This document shows positions 53,624 to 62,393 of a stretch of 64,000 nt of DNA, piece after piece. The notes under the pieces are model-generated. The model was not told the origin of the DNA and did not search any database. It saw only the letters and a program-made list of their open reading frames with translations. Position 1 is the stretch's first letter. The number at the start of each line of letters is the position of its first letter. Made by a program: the position numbers and the translations under genes. The DNA is taken from the sequence record MN709127.1. One strand, given 5' to 3'. This stretch comes from Escherichia phage Ec_Makalu_002.

Positions 53624-54142
53624 TTAGTTATTTTTTAATTGCTCATCTTGCAATAATGCAATCACATGCTGGCGATGTTCTTCCGATTGAGGAACACCGA
53701 AAAAGTTTGTTTTGTAGAAATACTCTAATCGGTCTTCTCGTGTGCTCTCTTCCATCATGATCGCGGGTAGTCCAAGATTTCGGAAACGTCGCTTTTCTGC
53801 TGGCGTAAAATCACTGTAATACAACATAGAATCATCATTACCAGCAATGCTAAACTCATCCTTCATAAAGGAGAATATTGCGTTTAAACGCTGTTTACCG
53901 TCCACGATTTCGATCTCATAGCGAGAGCCATCATCAATCTTAGCCATTGCGATAGCACCAACCGGAAAATCATTAATCAGGTTTTCGATAAACATACGTT
54001 TGTTTTCGGTGTCCCATACCAAAGGACGCTGATAATCTGGGTTCATGTTGATATAGCCATCTTCTAACCACGCCTCATAAACAGAGATGACAAAGTTTTT
54101 AGTATTGGTATAGTAACGGCGTTTAGGCGTTAAACGGTTCAT
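53624..54142 (-). CDS. DUF262 (ParB/Srx-like, GmrSD N-terminal-type) domain protein
   Basis: YQRPLVWD ... IVDGKQRLNAI resembles the DUF262 DGQQR motif; ORF track starts at TTG 54178, ATG 54142 has AGGAGA site. Confidence 0.55.
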   Translation of the reverse strand: MNRLTPKRRYYTNTKNFVISVYEAWLEDGYINMNPDYQRPLVWDTENKRMFIENLINDFPVGAIAMAKIDDGSRYEIEIVDGKQRLNAIFSFMKDEFSIAGNDDSMLYYSDFTPAEKRRFRNLGLPAIMMEESTREDRLEYFYKTNFFGVPQSEEHRQHVIALLQDEQLKNN

Positions 54143-54143
54143 G

Positions 54144-54476
54144 TTATAGTCTCCTGAATGGATCATCACGTAAATCAATATCTTTTAAGAACTCATCCCA
54201 TGAATGGCGGATAATGTTCTTAATTCTCCAGATAAGCGCAGGGATTGAACGCTCTCCCATCTGGAAGTAAGGATCATATGATCCATATGCCCAATATGCT
54301 ACTACAATTCCACAATCGGCGCAATAATATTCTATTTCACTTGCTGGCGACCAAAGTCCATCAATATGATCACGGATCTTGCTTTCGATGTTATGGCTAT
54401 GGCAATCAGGGCAACGGATGCAATGACCTTGTTTATCGTAATTTGACGTTAGCGAATACTTAAACAATCTCATCAT
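54144..54476 (-). CDS. Zinc-ribbon protein
   Basis: CIRCPDCHSH ... YCADCG (paired CxxC); start overlaps stop of upstream gene (ATGA). Confidence 0.5.
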   Translation of the reverse strand: MMRLFKYSLTSNYDKQGHCIRCPDCHSHNIESKIRDHIDGLWSPASEIEYYCADCGIVVAYWAYGSYDPYFQMGERSIPALIWRIKNIIRHSWDEFLKDIDLRDDPFRRL

Positions 54477-55189
54477 AGATCCTTATTGGCTTCAAATACT
54501 GCCTTTGCGAATCCTCGCGGGGTAAGTGACCTGATAGTCTTTGTTCTGGTTCCTTTCCCGCCTAGCTTAGAATGCTGTTTACTGTACCCTTTATTAATCT
54601 GCAACGGTTTCTTTTCTGGCATTATAAAGCCTTGTCCGGTCCATAAGCAAGTCTTTTTCGGGTACATATCACGGGCGGCAATATACTCAGGAAACGTAGG
54701 ATGCTTATCATCTTCCGGCAAATAACCGCCATATTCCCACGGATGGAACATGTAATCAGGCTTACGCCACATGCTAGAGATAACGCTTACAGGATTCTCT
54801 ATCATGTAGGGAACTCCTAGCCATTCACCCAAATAAGCGGTTATTTTAGCTGCCCTTACATCATGAACTTGAATTAATGGTCCTTGTTCTCGTTTCTTTC
54901 GTTCAAAGTGCGCAGCGCCACTAACAGCTAAATTGGTGCATGGTGGGAATGCAAAGATAATATCCGGTTTCCCCCATTCAAGGTCCATTGCTCTTTCCAG
55001 CCAATTTAAATCAATCCATGTGTTTACATATGTAATGTTTGGATGTTCAAATCGGGTATTATATTTTTTGTATGTACCGTGGTCGCCATCGTCAGCATTA
55101 AAGCAGATCACCTTATGACCTGCTTTAGCCCATTCTAACCCCATTATCCCCGATCCGTCAAAGTTGCAGAATATTAATTTTTGTTTCAT
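54473..55189 (-). CDS. Compact C5-cytosine methyltransferase-like protein
   Basis: FDGSGIMG (motif I-like), FPPCTNLAVSG (PC motif IV), MIENPV (ENV motif VI), RSLTPRGFAKAV (RxLTPRE-like); 238 aa. Confidence 0.55.
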   Translation of the reverse strand: MKQKLIFCNFDGSGIMGLEWAKAGHKVICFNADDGDHGTYKKYNTRFEHPNITYVNTWIDLNWLERAMDLEWGKPDIIFAFPPCTNLAVSGAAHFERKKREQGPLIQVHDVRAAKITAYLGEWLGVPYMIENPVSVISSMWRKPDYMFHPWEYGGYLPEDDKHPTFPEYIAARDMYPKKTCLWTGQGFIMPEKKPLQINKGYSKQHSKLGGKGTRTKTIRSLTPRGFAKAVFEANKDL

Positions 55190-55719: not shown

Positions 55720-55748
55720 ATTGTAGGGGAGTTATCCTCCCCTGTCAA
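55720..55748 (-). promoter_or_regulatory. Early promoter with palindromic spacer (TTGACA-GGGGAGGATAACTCCCC-TACAAT)
   Basis: Hexamers at 17-bp spacing; spacer forms a hairpin. Confidence 0.55.
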
Positions 55749-55762
55749 CACTTTTTATAAAA

Positions 55763-55930
55763 TTATTTGTTAATTTCTGGTGCGTTGCTAGGATAGTAAC
55801 CTTCTTTAACTCCGAGGTATTTCGCAACCATCCCTACAATCTTCTGTGCTACTACAATGTCAAATTTCAGATAATCTTCGCCGTGGGTTTCAATGATATA
55901 TGCTTCACATGCTGCTTTAGTCTCGAACAT
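55763..55930 (-). CDS. Small protein (55 aa), duplicated gene copy A
   Basis: MFETKAACEAYIIETHGEDYLKFDIVVAQKIVGMVAKYLGVKEGYYPSNAPEINK; near-identical to 59046..59213. Confidence 0.5.
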   Translation of the reverse strand: MFETKAACEAYIIETHGEDYLKFDIVVAQKIVGMVAKYLGVKEGYYPSNAPEINK

Positions 55931-55963
55931 TTTGATTCTCCTATTTCGTTTCGGTATGTGTGT

Positions 55964-55992
55964 ATTATAGGGGATCTCCCGATCCCCGTCAA
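55964..55992 (-). promoter_or_regulatory. Early promoter with palindromic spacer (TTGACG-GGGATCGGGAGATCCCC-TATAAT)
   Basis: Hexamers plus GATC-containing hairpin spacer. Confidence 0.55.
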
Positions 55993-56321: not shown

Positions 56322-56350
56322 ATTATGCTATGTTCTTACTTTGGTGTCAA
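56322..56350 (-). promoter_or_regulatory. Early promoter (TTGACA-17-CATAAT)
   Basis: Repeated module; non-palindromic spacer. Confidence 0.55.
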
Positions 56351-56668: not shown

Positions 56669-56698
56669 ATTATGCTATAGGCGTGATCAGGTGTCAAT
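56669..56698 (-). promoter_or_regulatory. Early promoter (TTGACA-18-CATAAT)
   Basis: Repeated module. Confidence 0.5.
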
Positions 56699-56722: not shown

Positions 56723-56747
56723 AAAAAAGCCGACACTAAGGTCGGCT
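56723..56747 (-). terminator. Minus-strand terminator after paralogue P1
   Basis: AGCCGACCTTAGTGTCGGCT followed by TTTTTT on minus strand. Confidence 0.55.
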
Positions 56748-56754
56748 AATAAAA

Positions 56755-57063
56755 TCATTTAGACAAATAATCATTCAGTGCAATCCGGTCGGCATGTTCC
56801 GGCGTTACATCAATCGCAATCACTTTAACGCGTGCTTTCTTGCGACCTGGGTTTTCTCGTAACCAGTGCTCATGACCGTGAACATTTTTATACTGCGATG
56901 CTTCTTCGAAGGTACGGATCGGACCAGGGTAATCAGCGTAAAGGATCTCTAGGTCATCGGTGATGTAAAAATATACGTTGTAATTACTGTTCTCTAGCTT
57001 AAGCAGAGACTTTCGGAACATTGGGAGATTTTCGCGGGTAAATTCAAAAGTAATATCTTTCAT
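56755..57063 (-). CDS. HxHW-family paralogue P1
   Basis: ATG 57063 with GAGGA site (ORF-track start 57210 overlaps upstream gene); motifs YFYITDDLEI, HGHEHW, VIAIDV. Confidence 0.5.
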   Translation of the reverse strand: MKDITFEFTRENLPMFRKSLLKLENSNYNVYFYITDDLEILYADYPGPIRTFEEASQYKNVHGHEHWLRENPGRKKARVKVIAIDVTPEHADRIALNDYLSK

Positions 57064-57085
57064 AGTATTATCCTCAATAGTTGGA

Positions 57086-57107
57086 TGAAAAGGGGGCTTA
57101 ACGCCCC
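57086..57107 (-). terminator. Minus-strand terminator
   Basis: GGGGCGTTAAGCCCCC followed by TTTT on minus strand; same hairpin core as the wac terminator. Confidence 0.5.
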
Positions 57108-57112
57108 ATATA

Positions 57113-57400
57113 TTAAAACAGTCCTTCCTGTACACCGTAGTAGAGTTCGTCGCTGATAATTTCATTAATGCGACGGTGTGCATATTCCTGATTTGCGAAG
57201 TTGTCAGCAAGTTCTACTTTAGTTTCACCGTCATGAGTCCATTTAGTGATAACTTTACCATCTGCAAATTTGAAGTTGAACTCTTTAGCTACTGCATCGC
57301 GTACCAGACGTGCGAACTTGTTGTTACGGATTGCATTATCGGTTTCGTGTGCAGCGTGAGCAAATTTGTTAACTTTCAGAGTGATAGTGATGTATGCCAT
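57113..57400 (-). CDS. Hypothetical early protein
   Basis: 95 aa; ATG behind conserved leader. Confidence 0.5.
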   Translation of the reverse strand: MAYITITLKVNKFAHAAHETDNAIRNNKFARLVRDAVAKEFNFKFADGKVITKWTHDGETKVELADNFANQEYAHRRINEIISDELYYGVQEGLF

Positions 57401-57446
57401 AATTTGATTCTCCTAGTTAGAAAGTGTATCTCGTTTCGATGGGTGT

Positions 57447-57475
57447 ATTATGCTATACACCCGATCTTATGTCAA
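57447..57475 (-). promoter_or_regulatory. Early promoter (TTGACA-17-CATAAT)
   Basis: Repeated module. Confidence 0.55.
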
Positions 57476-57483
57476 CACTTTTT

Positions 57484-57762
57484 TTATAAAATAATTTTTT
57501 GATATTTTTCTATGATGTTTGTGTAATCCACATCAACCGCTATCACCGTTGCTTCGAATCCACCGTTTAGCCAATGGCTATGGTCATGATCGTGAAAGAA
57601 ACCAAGACCAGTACGAAGACCTTCTTTATATTCGGCGCGTACATTTAGATCATCATCGATAAACAGATAAAACCATGAATTTTTACTAGGATTGATGATA
57701 CAACCTTTCAGATTAGGGAGAATATCACGACTAAGAATAAACTTATCACCTACTTTGAACAT
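57484..57762 (-). CDS. HxHW-family paralogue P2
   Basis: ORF track starts at GTG 57777; ATG 57762 with GAGGA site; motifs FYLFIDDDLNV, HDHDHSHW, VIAVDV. Confidence 0.5.
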   Translation of the reverse strand: MFKVGDKFILSRDILPNLKGCIINPSKNSWFYLFIDDDLNVRAEYKEGLRTGLGFFHDHDHSHWLNGGFEATVIAVDVDYTNIIEKYQKIIL

Positions 57763-57766
57763 AATA

Positions 57767-58087
57767 TTAGTCCTCACTTATAAGGTCAAACCAATTGTTT
57801 TTCGCATAATGCTTAATGCGTGCTTGATCTGCTTCCGCTGGTGATAGATTCCATGCAACCACTACAACTTCTGACGCGTCGTCATCCGTTTCTGATACCC
57901 AATGATTGTGATTCATACAGTTATTTGCGATCGAGTGAGCAAATGATTTCATCACTGGAGACGTATAATCATAGTAACGGATTTTCAGATTTTCATCAAC
58001 ATACAAGTAGATCGTATAAGGTTTATATTCAGTAACCAGTAACAGACAGTTACGCAATTCTGGGAAAATCTTTTTAGTTAATTTCAT
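57767..58087 (-). CDS. HxHW-family paralogue P3
   Basis: ATG 58087 one nt after upstream stop, GAGGA site; motifs YLYVDENLKI, NHNHW. Confidence 0.5.
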   Translation of the reverse strand: MKLTKKIFPELRNCLLLVTEYKPYTIYLYVDENLKIRYYDYTSPVMKSFAHSIANNCMNHNHWVSETDDDASEVVVVAWNLSPAEADQARIKHYAKNNWFDLISED

Positions 58088-58088
58088 T

Positions 58089-58307
58089 TTATAATCCTCG
58101 GTCGCGGCTATAGTACACGGTACGCCATACAATTTCATGTTTCGTGTCGCTCCAGCACACGATCTCATTTACTCTTAAATCTTTGTTATCAACAAAAGAT
58201 GAACATTGTGACGCTTCTTTCATCATTTTATCTGCTGTTTTCTCATCAAATACAGCACAGATTTCTTTATACACTCGATAATCTTTGAATTGACTCTGGA
58301 TACCCAT
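58089..58307 (-). CDS. Hypothetical protein, tandem paralogue of 58267..58524
   Basis: Shares SQFKDYRVYKEI...MMKEASQC with upstream neighbour; start uncertain (58307 or 58319). Confidence 0.4.
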   Translation of the reverse strand: MGIQSQFKDYRVYKEICAVFDEKTADKMMKEASQCSSFVDNKDLRVNEIVCWSDTKHEIVWRTVYYSRDRGL

Positions 58308-58524
58308 AATTAACACCATTCCAACCAATTGTTTTTGAGAAAACGTTTATCCACTGTTGAGTGTAGCATGTTTCTTTCCATGATACAATACGAGTAGAAT
58401 AATGGTTTTTGTTTCCAGAAAAGGACGGGCATTTTGATGCATCTTCCATCATCTTTTCGGCGAACTCCGCGTCATATACCCGCAGGATCTGTTGATATGC
58501 TTTATAATCTTTAAATTTGCTCAT
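58267..58524 (-). CDS. Hypothetical protein, tandem paralogue of 58089..58307
   Basis: SKFKDYKAYQQI...MMEDASKC; ATG start. Confidence 0.45.
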   Translation of the reverse strand: MSKFKDYKAYQQILRVYDAEFAEKMMEDASKCPSFSGNKNHYSTRIVSWKETCYTQQWINVFSKTIGWNGVNYGYPESIQRLSSV

Positions 58525-58789
58525 AATTGTTAACTACCTTATCAGCTTCTTTTATTGTTTTTACATCAACTGCGATAATCCGTAAAGGTTCGTCGAAGGT
58601 CCACCAGTGGTCATGAATATCAGCTTGTGATTTATCACCAAAGGAATCACGAATATCATTTTTACATTTATAGCTAATATGGCCTTCATAGTCAACATAA
58701 AGGTAATTATCGAAAATCGGCGTTTTTAAGATCATACCGAAAAATCTTTCTTTGTGTGTCTTATCAAGTGTTGCAGTAATTCGCATCAT
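58511..58789 (-). CDS. HxHW-family paralogue P4
   Basis: Motifs YLYVDYEGHI, HDHWW, IIAVDV. Confidence 0.5.
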   Translation of the reverse strand: MMRITATLDKTHKERFFGMILKTPIFDNYLYVDYEGHISYKCKNDIRDSFGDKSQADIHDHWWTFDEPLRIIAVDVKTIKEADKVVNNYEQI

Positions 58790-58801
58790 AATATATTCCT
58801 C

Positions 58802-58981
58802 TTAGAAAGGGATGGTCATTTCTTGAGCTTGTACATTCTCGTTAGGATTAAACTTCATCCAACCGATATTGTCTACCAGCATATGTACATTTTTATCATA
58901 TCCTACGTGAGTAGTCAACACTAAATGTGCTTTACCTTCAACGATGATTTCCATGTACTTCTGAACTTCGATAGCTTTCAT
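58802..58981 (-). CDS. Small hypothetical early protein (59 aa)
   Basis: ATG behind conserved leader and promoter; below ORF-track cut-off. Confidence 0.4.
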   Translation of the reverse strand: MKAIEVQKYMEIIVEGKAHLVLTTHVGYDKNVHMLVDNIGWMKFNPNENVQAQEMTIPF

Positions 58982-59013
58982 TTTGATTCTCCGTTTGTTG
59001 TCTTGATGGGAGT

Positions 59014-59042
59014 ATCTTACTACTCCCTTTAATCATTGTCAA
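59014..59042 (-). promoter_or_regulatory. Early promoter (TTGACA-17-TAAGAT) with hairpin overlapping -10
   Basis: GGGAGTA...TACTCCC inverted repeat spans the -10 region. Confidence 0.5.
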
Positions 59043-59045
59043 CTA

Positions 59046-59213
59046 TTATTTGTTAATTTCCGGTGCGTTGCTCGGATAGTAACCTTCTTTAACACCCAGA
59101 TATTTTGCAACCATTCCGGTGATCTTCTGTGCTACTACGATATCGAATTTCAGGTAGTCTTCACCGTGGTTTGCTACAATGTATGCTTCGCATTCTGCTT
59201 TAGTCTGGAACAT
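59046..59213 (-). CDS. Small protein (55 aa), duplicated gene copy B
   Basis: MFQTKAECEAYIVANHGEDYLKFDIVVAQKITGMVAKYLGVKEGYYPSNAPEINK; ORF-track N-terminal extension runs through the promoter leader. Confidence 0.5.
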   Translation of the reverse strand: MFQTKAECEAYIVANHGEDYLKFDIVVAQKITGMVAKYLGVKEGYYPSNAPEINK

Positions 59214-59247
59214 TTTTGATTCTCCTATATCTCGTTGGTATGTGTGC

Positions 59248-59276
59248 ATTATAGGGGATCGGTGATCCCCTGTCAA
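59248..59276 (-). promoter_or_regulatory. Early promoter with palindromic spacer (TTGACA-GGGGATCACCGATCCCC-TATAAT)
   Basis: Consensus hexamers, 17-bp GATC-hairpin spacer. Confidence 0.6.
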
Positions 59277-59283
59277 CAACTTT

Positions 59284-59580
59284 TTATGATTTTTCTTTAT
59301 ATGCGTATTGAATAAATTGGTCCGCCACTTCGTCGGCTTTTTCGGGTTTGACTTCTGACGCCAGGACAATAGCTAGATCGGTTTCGTCGTTCCCGTCATA
59401 CCAATGATTATGAGTGTCTTTTTCTTTGATATAGAATGAGTCATTTGGAGTTGGACGACAATATACGTCTAAATTCTCGTCGATGTAAAAGATCCAATCT
59501 TCATAAAGAATAACCGTATTAGCAAGGTTCTTATTACCTTCAACGAAAGGTTCGGTTACAAACAAATCAGTACGTTCCAT
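59284..59580 (-). CDS. HxHW-family paralogue P5
   Basis: Motifs IFYIDENLDV, HNHW. Confidence 0.5.
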   Translation of the reverse strand: MERTDLFVTEPFVEGNKNLANTVILYEDWIFYIDENLDVYCRPTPNDSFYIKEKDTHNHWYDGNDETDLAIVLASEVKPEKADEVADQFIQYAYKEKS

Positions 59581-59595
59581 AGTATTTTCCTCAAA

Positions 59596-59757
59596 TTAAG
59601 AAAAAGCGTTGAAAACAACCGCCAACACAACTACGTTAGCGATAAGGCTTAAAAAGCATTTCTTGAAACTTTCAGTGCAGATACCAATACTGGCAGGAAT
59701 TACACCGATCACGATAGCATAAAGAATAACTGCGATTTCTTGAAATACACCGTTCAT
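59596..59757 (-). CDS. Small hydrophobic protein (53 aa)
   Basis: Largely hydrophobic sequence; ATG with GAGGA site; below ORF-track cut-off. Confidence 0.4.
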   Translation of the reverse strand: MNGVFQEIAVILYAIVIGVIPASIGICTESFKKCFLSLIANVVVLAVVFNAFS

Positions 59758-59814
59758 AATATTATCCTCAAAGTATGGGAGAGTGTTACCCCTCCCGATG
59801 ATTGTTATATTGCA

Positions 59815-60147
59815 TCACACAAAATGGCGTGTCAATGCTTCTTTTGCGGTTCCGCTAAGATTCTCGATCTCTCCTGGCATAACATCAACCGCCAGAACTT
59901 CTACAACATCCTCTGTTCCTAACCAGTGAGTATGACCTTTGTAGAACTTGATGCCCATATTGCCTTCTTCGTCCCATTTAACGCCCCATTTAACGTTATC
60001 ACTAGCCCACCACACATCACCGTCGATAAAGTTGATGTAAAGCACACTACGCCACATTGAATTAGTTACTTTCAATACCGCGCCTTTCATCTCTTCCACG
60101 GTGTGGTCTTCCATTTTGAAGACCTCGCCTACCTGAACTTTTGCCAT
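59815..60147 (-). CDS. HxHW-family paralogue P6
   Basis: Motifs LYINFIDGDV, GHTHW, VLAVDV. Confidence 0.5.
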   Translation of the reverse strand: MAKVQVGEVFKMEDHTVEEMKGAVLKVTNSMWRSVLYINFIDGDVWWASDNVKWGVKWDEEGNMGIKFYKGHTHWLGTEDVVEVLAVDVMPGEIENLSGTAKEALTRHFV

Positions 60148-60378: not shown

Positions 60379-60408
60379 ATTATAGGGGATCTCCCGACCC
60401 CCTGTCAA
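60379..60408 (-). promoter_or_regulatory. Early promoter with palindromic spacer (TTGACA-GGGGGTCGGGAGATCCCC-TATAAT)
   Basis: Consensus hexamers, 18-bp hairpin spacer. Confidence 0.6.
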
Positions 60409-60421
60409 CAACTTTTTTGAA

Positions 60422-60898
60422 TTATTTTTCTTGATGCTCGCGCTCGTACTTTTCGAAATAAAATTCTACTGGCTGATCGTGGATTGAAAGCAAGCCAAAG
60501 CGTTTAGCCGCACGTAATCCCATGTTACGTTGAATGTACTTCTGGAAGTTCTCGCGTATACACTTACGCCAGTATTCTAAGCCCATACAGCTTTTGTAAA
60601 GATTGCATTGCACACAAGCCGGATTCATGTTGTCAAGTATATCGTGCTCCGGTTTATGCATTCCTACAACCTTATACTTCCACGACCCATCATCATTACG
60701 GGCAATTCGTCCATTTTCATCATAGACTACTTTTGAGCGTCGCAATACTGGTTTGATGTGGTCTGCGTGCCAGCGATCCCCTAGTTCCTCGCCACAATAG
60801 GCACAACGTCCACCGTATTTCATTTTCAGGATCTGGCGTTGCTCTTTCTTTGACAATTTTTTAGGTTTAGGGGCTTTCGCCCCTTCATTATCACACAT
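60422..60898 (-). CDS. HNH endonuclease
   Basis: CAYCG ... WHADHIKP ... N ... CVQCN (HNH zinc-finger nuclease signature); start overlaps 3' end of ligase gene. Confidence 0.7.
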   Translation of the reverse strand: MCDNEGAKAPKPKKLSKKEQRQILKMKYGGRCAYCGEELGDRWHADHIKPVLRRSKVVYDENGRIARNDDGSWKYKVVGMHKPEHDILDNMNPACVQCNLYKSCMGLEYWRKCIRENFQKYIQRNMGLRAAKRFGLLSIHDQPVEFYFEKYEREHQEK

Positions 60899-62393
60899 CG
60901 AATACCTCTTTTACTGTATTTGCAGTGGTCTTGTCGTAGCGAATACGTTTGATGATTGGGAGAAATAAAGAGAACTCCGGTTCATCTTCTTTACGTGATT
61001 TGCTGCGGATATATCCGTTGCATGTCATCTCAATGACTTTTCCAATCAGGTTATGACGGTCAGCCCATAACATTTCTCGGTCAAGTTCATTTCGACGATC
61101 GAACGGAATTACACGTTCAATACCATCATCACCTTTTTCGGTTGTGGTGTCTGTCAATCCCGATCCGGTGTTAGTCATCATTCGTCCGCACGCACTACGG
61201 ACAGTAAAACCGCCTACCTTGTTAGGTTCTTTACTGTGCGGATATACATCAACAATTTCCGCGTCGAAGTCAATCACTTCTTTAAATTTAACCTGGTCTT
61301 TACTGCGACGATCTTCAAATACACCATGTAAATTTTTAAGGATAATACCTTCTAATCCCATGTTGACATAACGATGATATACTTCGCGAGCTTCATCGAT
61401 ATTGTTAACTACAGTATTTTCGATTATCTGAACACGAGGATCGTTAAGTTCTTCAACAATCTGTTTTAGTTCTTCGAATCGATCTTTATATTGCTTCGTT
61501 GCTTTCTCGTTTCCGTAATACACATCACGGTCGATAACATCCCAGACAGTGTAAACAATACATTGGGCTTCTTCTTTTGGAATAGTTCCTTTCAGTGATT
61601 TGTTGAGGATACCATTTCCGGTCTGACGGTCTGCAACAACGGATTCTTTCACTGCTTCCGCTACTGGCGTTAATGGCATTTCCTCTTCTTCAAATATCCA
61701 TGATAGAGTACCATCATAAACGCTCTCAACGAAGTTCTGCGCTGGTGTTTGAGAAAGGGTAGGCATATATACCAACTCACCATCTAAAACAATTCCACGG
61801 CCTCGTAGACGCTCTAAAACAGCAAACAAATCATCCAGCCCCTGATAGGTATTACCTGAACGGGTATAGATTGCTAATGTTTCTCCGTCAATATCAGCCA
61901 TACCACGAGCGCCATCGCTTTTAAGTTGTGCATACGCCGGATATTTGATATTGGCAATAGTCTTATCAGAACATGACGATGCAAGGTGGCACGGCTGCTG
62001 AGGAATCAGCTTCTTCCATACCTTGTTTGCGGTGGTAGCGGAACAACCGCATTCCAGATCACGATTCAGGACCATCATTGCAACTTTAGCATCATCTTCT
62101 GACAAGCAAGTCAGAGTATCGGTAACTAGCTGTAATGCAGCATTACCAGTTACTTGACGCGTGGCAAGTTTATTTTTAAAGACCTGTAATGCACCGGATA
62201 AAGACAATACAGACGAATAGCGAGACGGTTTATCGTATTTCTTTACGCCAAACGTAACCTGCTTGCAATATGCCAGATAAAAGCATTCTTTCAGCGTTTC
62301 ATTGCTTGCAGATTCTTTCAGGATCTTTTCTTTCAGCGATGTTTTGTCAGTAGCTGCAAGCTGATTAATGATATTAAGAATTGACATTTTCAC
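60891..62393 (-). CDS. 30: ATP-dependent DNA ligase gp30
   Basis: 500 aa; adenylation motif I YAQLKSDGAR (KxDG); size close to T4 gp30. Confidence 0.85.
   Translation of the reverse strand: MKMSILNIINQLAATDKTSLKEKILKESASNETLKECFYLAYCKQVTFGVKKYDKPSRYSSVLSLSGALQVFKNKLATRQVTGNAALQLVTDTLTCLSEDDAKVAMMVLNRDLECGCSATTANKVWKKLIPQQPCHLASSCSDKTIANIKYPAYAQLKSDGARGMADIDGETLAIYTRSGNTYQGLDDLFAVLERLRGRGIVLDGELVYMPTLSQTPAQNFVESVYDGTLSWIFEEEEMPLTPVAEAVKESVVADRQTGNGILNKSLKGTIPKEEAQCIVYTVWDVIDRDVYYGNEKATKQYKDRFEELKQIVEELNDPRVQIIENTVVNNIDEAREVYHRYVNMGLEGIILKNLHGVFEDRRSKDQVKFKEVIDFDAEIVDVYPHSKEPNKVGGFTVRSACGRMMTNTGSGLTDTTTEKGDDGIERVIPFDRRNELDREMLWADRHNLIGKVIEMTCNGYIRSKSRKEDEPEFSLFLPIIKRIRYDKTTANTVKEVFDV

Follow-up and report, generated by a model that had tools for sequence, protein, structure and literature searches.

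Six small open reading frames (ORFs) stand in tandem on the minus strand at positions 56755-60147 of a stretch of Escherichia phage Ec_Makalu_002 DNA (MN709127.1), and they raise the question of whether such weakly similar sequences are one family at all and, if so, what a phage would use six of them for. We analysed the whole stretch of 64,000 nucleotides, which is referred to below as the window. The phage belongs to Krischvirus, the RB49-like group of T4-type coliphages, and the array lies between the DNA ligase gene (gene 30, 60891-62393), which is followed by an HNH endonuclease gene, and alt. The ligase-alt interval counts among the hyperplastic regions of T4-type genomes, where multi-gene orphan families are nothing new. 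Among the early orphan genes, which T4-type phages carry in large blocks, several have proved to inhibit bacterial immunity or to take part in host takeover. Our data show that all six ORFs are functional genes and belong to one ancient, diverged paralogous family, which we call HxHW after its central motif.

The six ORFs are present exactly where the initial annotation had placed them, each with an ATG behind a Shine-Dalgarno sequence of the GAGG type. They are listed here with their two motifs, their PHROG family and the E value obtained in a leave-one-out test, for which a profile hidden Markov model (HMM) was built with the given copy and its orthologues excluded and was scored against the 576 six-frame ORFs of the window.

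56755..57063, minus strand: copy 1, 102 amino acids, HGHEHW and VIAIDV, phrog_9345, E 5.7e-14
57484..57762, minus strand: copy 2, 92 amino acids, HDHDHSHW and VIAVDV, phrog_17255, E 7.5e-10
57767..58087, minus strand: copy 3, 106 amino acids, NHNHW and VVAWNL, phrog_9345, E 4.9e-16
58511..58789, minus strand: copy 4, 92 amino acids, IHDHWW and IIAVDV, phrog_15972, E 2.4e-6
59284..59580, minus strand: copy 5, 98 amino acids, THNHW and VLASEV, isoelectric point (pI) 4.3, phrog_15965, E 4e-10
59815..60147, minus strand: copy 6, 110 amino acids, GHTHW and VLAVDV, phrog_16486, E 8.5e-9, ATG with the Shine-Dalgarno sequence AGAGAGG

Every omitted copy was recovered, with E values from 2.4e-6 to 4.9e-16, and the best non-family ORF in the same test reached 0.04-0.4. 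The paralogy proposed in the initial annotation thus has statistical support, to which BLASTP, hhalign and cross-matches of PHROG profiles contribute as well. Pairwise BLASTP gave an E value of 5e-13 for copies 1 and 3 and of about 1e-6 for copies 1 and 2 and copies 2 and 6, at a low identity of 22-31% among the copies (22-29% to copy 1 across the full-length alignment). Profile-profile comparison of the six orthologue groups by hhalign gave E values from 3e-13 to 3e-2; the most weakly linked is copy 4, whose best partner is copy 2 (3.7e-5) and which matches copy 5 at 0.029. The window proteins match their own PHROGs over the full length (E 1e-43 to 1e-65) and the PHROG profiles of one copy match other copies, that of phrog_9345 matching 19 of 25 diverse members. 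Each copy therefore belongs to the superfamily both by its own PHROG (E below 1e-43) and by the profile of the other copies (E of at most 2e-6).

The core of the superfamily consists of a Y-h-Y-I-D strand, the H-x-H-W motif, an h-h-A-x-D/N-V strand and a C-terminal helix. The HxHW part of the motif set first read from the letters holds, but across the 25 diverse members invariance is limited to the second His and the Trp (H66 and W67); the first His (H64) is found in 24 of them and is absent from some copy-5 orthologues (P0085, P0087). The His residues that had been seen as a cluster (HGHEHW, HDHDHSHW) are there, but the additional ones are copy-specific and two are family-wide, while the exact forms (V/I)(I/L)A(I/V)DV and YhD(D/E)(D/N)L each occur in four of the six copies. 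The Tyr/Phe position of the YhYID strand is aromatic in all 25 members, D35 is kept in 20 and D/N85 in 23, and conservation extends to the hhA-x-D/N-V strand and to an A-D pair with which the last helix begins. No other six-frame ORF of at least 60 amino acids carries H.HW in the 64-kb window or in the 102 kb of RB49 outside the window-equivalent region (about 166 kb in total). No further copies were found in the rest of the window or at RB49 positions 1-64,000 and 126,000-164,018.

The family had not been recognised by the initial annotation, and this was borne out by our searches. Pfam has no match above threshold for any copy, PADLOC gives no family for any copy at E values up to 1 (a weak test, since its models describe defence systems and not anti-defence), and searches of PDB sequences with the family profile and with copy 2 alone returned noise only (E above 1). 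The five matching families, PHROGs 9345, 17255, 15972, 15965 and 16486, stand in the database as separate families of unknown function; we join them into one superfamily because of the cross-matches and the profile comparisons, and no sixth PHROG family recurs among the members. The orthologues of the six copies in RB49 (RB49p197, p199, p200, p203, p206 and p208) are all annotated as hypothetical, and no paper was found that treats the HxHW proteins as one family or gives them a function.

Several known families with similar motifs were considered and rejected. The JAMM/MPN metalloproteases (E...HxHx7Sx2D) share the HxH dyad, and orthologues of copy 2 match the Prp8 MPN-type family PROCT of Pfam below threshold (E 0.0034, 17.7 bits against a cut-off of 23.6). 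However, motif, spacing and fold do not fit: JAMM proteins usually have Pro after HxH where the HxHW family has Trp, and the HxHW family has no conserved Glu or Ser, a variable Asp spacing and a motif that is not placed at a strand end in the models. The HIT triad (H-phi-H-phi-H-phi-phi) and the HxH motifs of cupins and metallo-beta-lactamases find no profile or fold support. A KOW/SH3-like (Spt5) label that one source gave to the member P0076 was not reproduced by profile searches. The HxHW products (84-114 amino acids) are soluble, have no hydrophobic segments and are mostly acidic (pI 4.3-6.4); as only copies 5 and 6 are strongly acidic and the other four are near neutral, DNA mimicry was rejected too.

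The distribution of the family is narrow. Across the 4.7-kb stretch around the array, identity to Krischvirus genomes (kaaroe, KFS-EC, Makalu, RB49, phi1 and others; 58 matching records) is 93-98%. In a word-indexed search 87 clusters came back; their identity to one of the six copies was never below 64%, so that they are Krischvirus orthologues, and a second such search added two further variants resembling copy 4. An exhaustive HMMER profile search of 1.84 billion representatives found only 20 proteins (clusters) at E values of at most 1e-3, of which 13 were new; these keep H(N/D)HW with the exception of the truncated fragment P0098, and every placed member from this search lies in a Krischvirus genome or on a metagenome contig. 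Two distant members, searched by tblastn against 50,697 phage records, matched in Krischvirus only, and profile, tblastn and PHROG searches did not find the family in other T4-type phages. The alignment and HMM search proposed along with the initial annotation thus gave matches almost confined to Krischvirus and none to a characterised family, and the HxHW family is specific to Krischvirus genomes and metagenome contigs. The sole long contig (L005, 20 kb) comes from a T4-type phage with a ligase 72% identical to that of the window and with Krischvirus as the nearest cultured relative. It represents a sister lineage, and its ligase-alt region, syntenic with the array, holds two HxHW members of the copy-5 type.

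The array had also been described as diversifying, and this description is not supported in that form. All six members are found in the same order in eight of eight Krischvirus genomes (the window and seven other loci). In a neighbour-joining tree without bootstrap each window copy groups with its own distant orthologues from uncultured relatives, to which it is about 30-45% identical; therefore, the six lineages are older than the split of these phages. The ratio of non-synonymous to synonymous substitution rates (dN/dS, mean over the eight Krischvirus genomes) is 0.22 for copy 1, 0.12 for copies 2 and 4, 0.15 for copy 3 and 0.16 for copies 5 and 6. Purifying selection on every copy is clear, if slightly weaker than on most of the genes nearby (0.00-0.16). 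Old lineages, fixed copy number and purifying selection together rule out an array of fast turnover. What does vary is the 18 residues before HxHW: in all six orthologue groups no other part varies as much as this loop, which includes indels and is 1.3-4.8 times as diverse as the remainder of the protein, while HxHW itself is the most conserved part. The six are therefore old paralogues kept as a fixed set, in which a single loop varies beside an invariant motif.

The modeled structures fit one domain for the whole family. AlphaFold2, run with the family alignments, gave the same topology for copy 1 (predicted local distance difference test, pLDDT, 86.5; predicted template modelling score, pTM, 0.81) and copy 2 (86.8 and 0.82): a strand, a short helix, three strands, a loop of lower confidence, a short helix with HxHW, a fifth strand (hhAxDV) and a C-terminal helix. 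The members are thus predicted to share a compact alpha/beta domain of five strands, the short HxHW helix and the C-terminal helix. The models of copies 1 and 2 find no match among solved structures; recurring in the comparison were the Tas1 immunity protein Tis1 (3.8 / 4.1), Cif (4.0 / 4.0), AcrIIA7 (3.6 / 3.7) and ModTad2 (3.4 / 3.2), as well as C39-type and other papain-like peptidases, RimP and mS34. A Foldseek search of predicted viral structures gave significant matches to family members only. The fold of the HxHW domain is possibly new.

The HxHW copies are interleaved and overlapping with genes of a second small paralogue family, family B, whose signature is FKDYxAY...W...W.

58267..58524, minus strand: B1, family B (phrog_8471), overlapping the end of copy 4 by 14 nucleotides
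58089..58307, minus strand: B2, second family-B member, overlapping B1 by 41 nucleotides and abutting copy 3

Copy 3 starts 1 nucleotide past the B2 stop, and in the series copy 4, B1, B2, copy 3, copy 2 the overlaps and gaps span -41 to +4 nucleotides. Uncultured relatives hold natural fusions of the same parts. A 2.1-kb contig (L003) has five HxHW domains in four adjacent genes, one of which (P0088, L003 823-1434) is a tandem fusion of a copy-2-type domain and a divergent HxHW domain. On contig L004 a copy-5-type gene is followed by a 260-amino-acid ORF (318-1100) made of two family-B domains and a copy-3-type domain, and this fusion suggests a functional or physical link of family B with the HxHW proteins.

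On the minus strand, seven promoters close to the sigma-70 consensus (11-12 of 12 positions) are found between 55.7 and 60.4 kb, embedded in repeated intergenic cassettes of 64-81 nucleotides. In four of the seven a GGGG..CCCC hairpin (-10 to -12 kcal/mol) exactly fills the spacer between -35 and -10, which is the arrangement known as PeSL; three have no hairpin. Four of the promoters are at 55720-55748, 55964-55992, 56322-56350 and 56669-56697, and the other three serve the six copies, copy 1 being bracketed by hairpins.

60379..60408, minus strand: promoter, 12/12, PeSL hairpin; unit orf59, copy 6, orf53, copy 5
59248..59276, minus strand: promoter, 12/12, PeSL hairpin; unit orf55, orf59b, copy 4, B1, B2, copy 3, copy 2
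57447..57475, minus strand: promoter, 11/12, no hairpin; unit orf95, terminator-like hairpin, copy 1, terminator
57093-57107, minus strand: GC-rich hairpin with T-rich tail between orf95 and copy 1, with no promoter after it
56728..56747, minus strand: terminator-like hairpin and T-run directly after copy 1

PeSL cassettes are recognised by near-consensus -35 and -10 hexamers, the GGGG..CCCC spacer hairpin, a conserved 5' untranslated region with a Shine-Dalgarno sequence and location in a hyperplastic region; near-consensus hexamers, spacer hairpin and hyperplastic location are all found here. The PeSL cassettes described in RB49 and phi1 (Arbiol et al. 2010, PMC2839356; Comeau et al. 2014, PMC4122927) occupy the same region, with the same promoter-plus-hairpin motifs flanking small ORFans. 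There they act as early promoters and terminators and have a role in cassette excision and shuffling (PMC2839356). Such motifs around small ORFans would explain the duplication and shuffling of cassettes. However, the PeSL is a regulatory and recombination element and not a protein, the HxHW family being the proteins; the words 'paralog' and 'gene family' do not occur in PMC2839356. Moreover, three promoters for six copies mean that most copies are not individual cassettes. Judging from the near-consensus sigma-70 and PeSL promoters, the six copies would be transcribed immediately after infection, which agrees with the early expression assumed in the initial annotation, here read from three units behind such promoters, several of them of the PeSL type. 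Terminators are annotated in phage G37-3 at positions equivalent to the copy-1 hairpins. As no promoter follows the hairpin at 57093-57107, copy 1 may need read-through for its transcription and may be expressed less strongly than the other five.

What could be the function of such proteins? The reading we favour, tentatively, is that they are early accessory proteins of a binding type, which share one His/Trp site while each lineage has its own partner, plausibly a host factor, and which perhaps work as oligomers, partly with B proteins. They would bind and not catalyse, acting as pre-replicative accessory factors or inhibitors. The conserved scaffold with its His/Trp patch would provide a common interaction or ligand site, possibly for a metal, and the variable loop and the divergent surfaces would direct each of the six lineages to a partner of its own, most plausibly a host protein of housekeeping or defence. 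Homo- or hetero-oligomers, some including B proteins, are suggested by the overlapping and abutting genes and by the natural fusions (HxHW-HxHW and B-B-HxHW). The metal site and the host-takeover or anti-defence role put forward in the initial annotation would both be plausible guesses.

Some facts speak against this reading. The searches brought up no characterised relative, no partner is on record, and the genes around the array are annotated throughout as of unknown function. An invariant His beside a conserved Asp/Asn would also fit a catalytic or metal site, H64, H66, D35 and D85 having been judged by sequence conservation. The fusions come from single short metagenome contigs. Finally, a fixed copy number under purifying selection would be more usual for housekeeping functions of a phage than for effectors in an arms race.

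An unlikely explanation, though the least unlikely of the alternatives, is that the proteins work inside the phage programme: HxHW and B proteins would form a hetero-oligomeric complex for early tasks such as nucleic-acid or nucleotide metabolism or regulation. Six copies of fixed number and order under purifying selection in every Krischvirus genome examined, the tight coupling or overlap from copy 4 through B1, B2 and copy 3 to copy 2, and the fusions in relatives speak for it. However, all other T4-type phages have the same core programme and lack the family, the array sits in a hyperplastic accessory region of mobile PeSL cassettes, and the sister lineage has only two copies in its syntenic region.

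Another explanation, which we consider rather improbable, is that the proteins are sponges of immune signals. Small oligomers would sequester the nucleotide second messengers of CBASS, Thoeris, Pycsar or type III CRISPR, with the invariant His/Trp stacking on the ligand and the six paralogues covering different signals. The size of about 90-110 amino acids, the early expression read from the promoters and the dimer-like fusions resemble known sponges, there is a weak resemblance to Tad2/AcrIIA7, and a precedent exists in Vs.3 (TadIV-1), a 92-amino-acid orphan of T4-type phages recently shown to be a sponge (PMC13243611). Yet neither DUF2829 of Pfam nor any other sponge family matches even at E values up to 10, so that membership in Tad2/AcrIIA7 is not supported; no similarity is significant, no sequence relatives exist outside the clade, and six stably retained paralogues would require six ligands. 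Identity with TadIV-1 itself was rejected, since T4 Vs.3 is a different protein. The broader proposal, in which a new fold with oligomeric His/Trp pockets gives six early counter-defence proteins (sponges or inhibitors), each directed against a different E. coli immune system or signal and with the pre-motif loop setting the specificity, seems to us equally doubtful.

We judge it similarly improbable that the family is defined by metal binding. HxH, perhaps joined by the Asp/Asn that follows strands 3 and 5 or by a second protomer, would then coordinate Zn, Ni or Fe, in a site that could be structural, catalytic (in a small hydrolase) or metal-sequestering. The conservation of HxH and of D35 (20 of 25) and D/N85 (23 of 25) agrees with this, as do the copy-specific additional His residues beside the motif, and the tandem-domain fusion is compatible with a site between two domains. 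Contrastingly, one His only is strictly invariant, the first being lost from some copy-5 orthologues, and the Asp positions are exchanged for N, T, G or E in several lineages. None of the known families with a metal motif matches, the patterns of JAMM/MPN, HIT and cupin having been compared without a fit, and the models place HxHW in or at a short helix, so that residues i and i+2 would face different sides.

The explanation that the motifs are similar by chance, or that the ORFs are non-functional passengers of PeSL cassettes, could call on the pairwise identity of 22-31% and on weak profile pairs such as copy 4 against copy 5 (E 0.029), but is very hard to reconcile with leave-one-out E values of 2e-6 to 5e-16, dN/dS of 0.12-0.22, orthologues kept in divergent phages and the same confident AlphaFold fold for two copies.

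Under the favoured reading of early binding proteins with a partner for each lineage, distinct targets of the copies would show that a phage lineage can build and keep a multi-specific toolkit from one scaffold. If the copies were dispensable on all hosts, they would be ordinary phage dark matter. Five PHROG families of unknown function become one superfamily, for which a signature is defined, a confident structural model with no known fold match is at hand and the transcription layout is mapped. The evolutionary picture is one of six old lineages, all retained, and the 3.4-kb array is a compact, testable target in well-studied coliphages such as RB49, phi1 and the BASEL Krischvirus isolates.

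A few observations were made beside these. Among the eight Krischvirus genomes synonymous divergence (dS) is about 0.8 in copy 5 and B2 and about 0.1 in the genes next to them, copy 5 showing the deepest allelic divergence of the six copies; these deep values suggest mosaic exchange of old alleles. Between copies 6 and 5, at 59596-59757 on the minus strand, lies a hydrophobic ORF of 53 amino acids without a PHROG match, and since just one of the seven other Krischvirus loci has it at an identity of at least 55%, it is a variable cassette inside the array. Positions 55762-55933 and 59045-59216 form a direct repeat of 172 nucleotides (85% identity), which carries an ORF of 55 amino acids (phrog_8009) with its PeSL promoter and looks like a recent cassette duplication of the kind proposed for PeSL recombination. 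The same early region also contains, at 53624-54178 and 54473-55189 on the minus strand, a 184-amino-acid protein consisting of GmrSD_N/DUF262 (ParB-like) only (Pfam E 5e-20) and, two genes away, a DNA methyltransferase gene.

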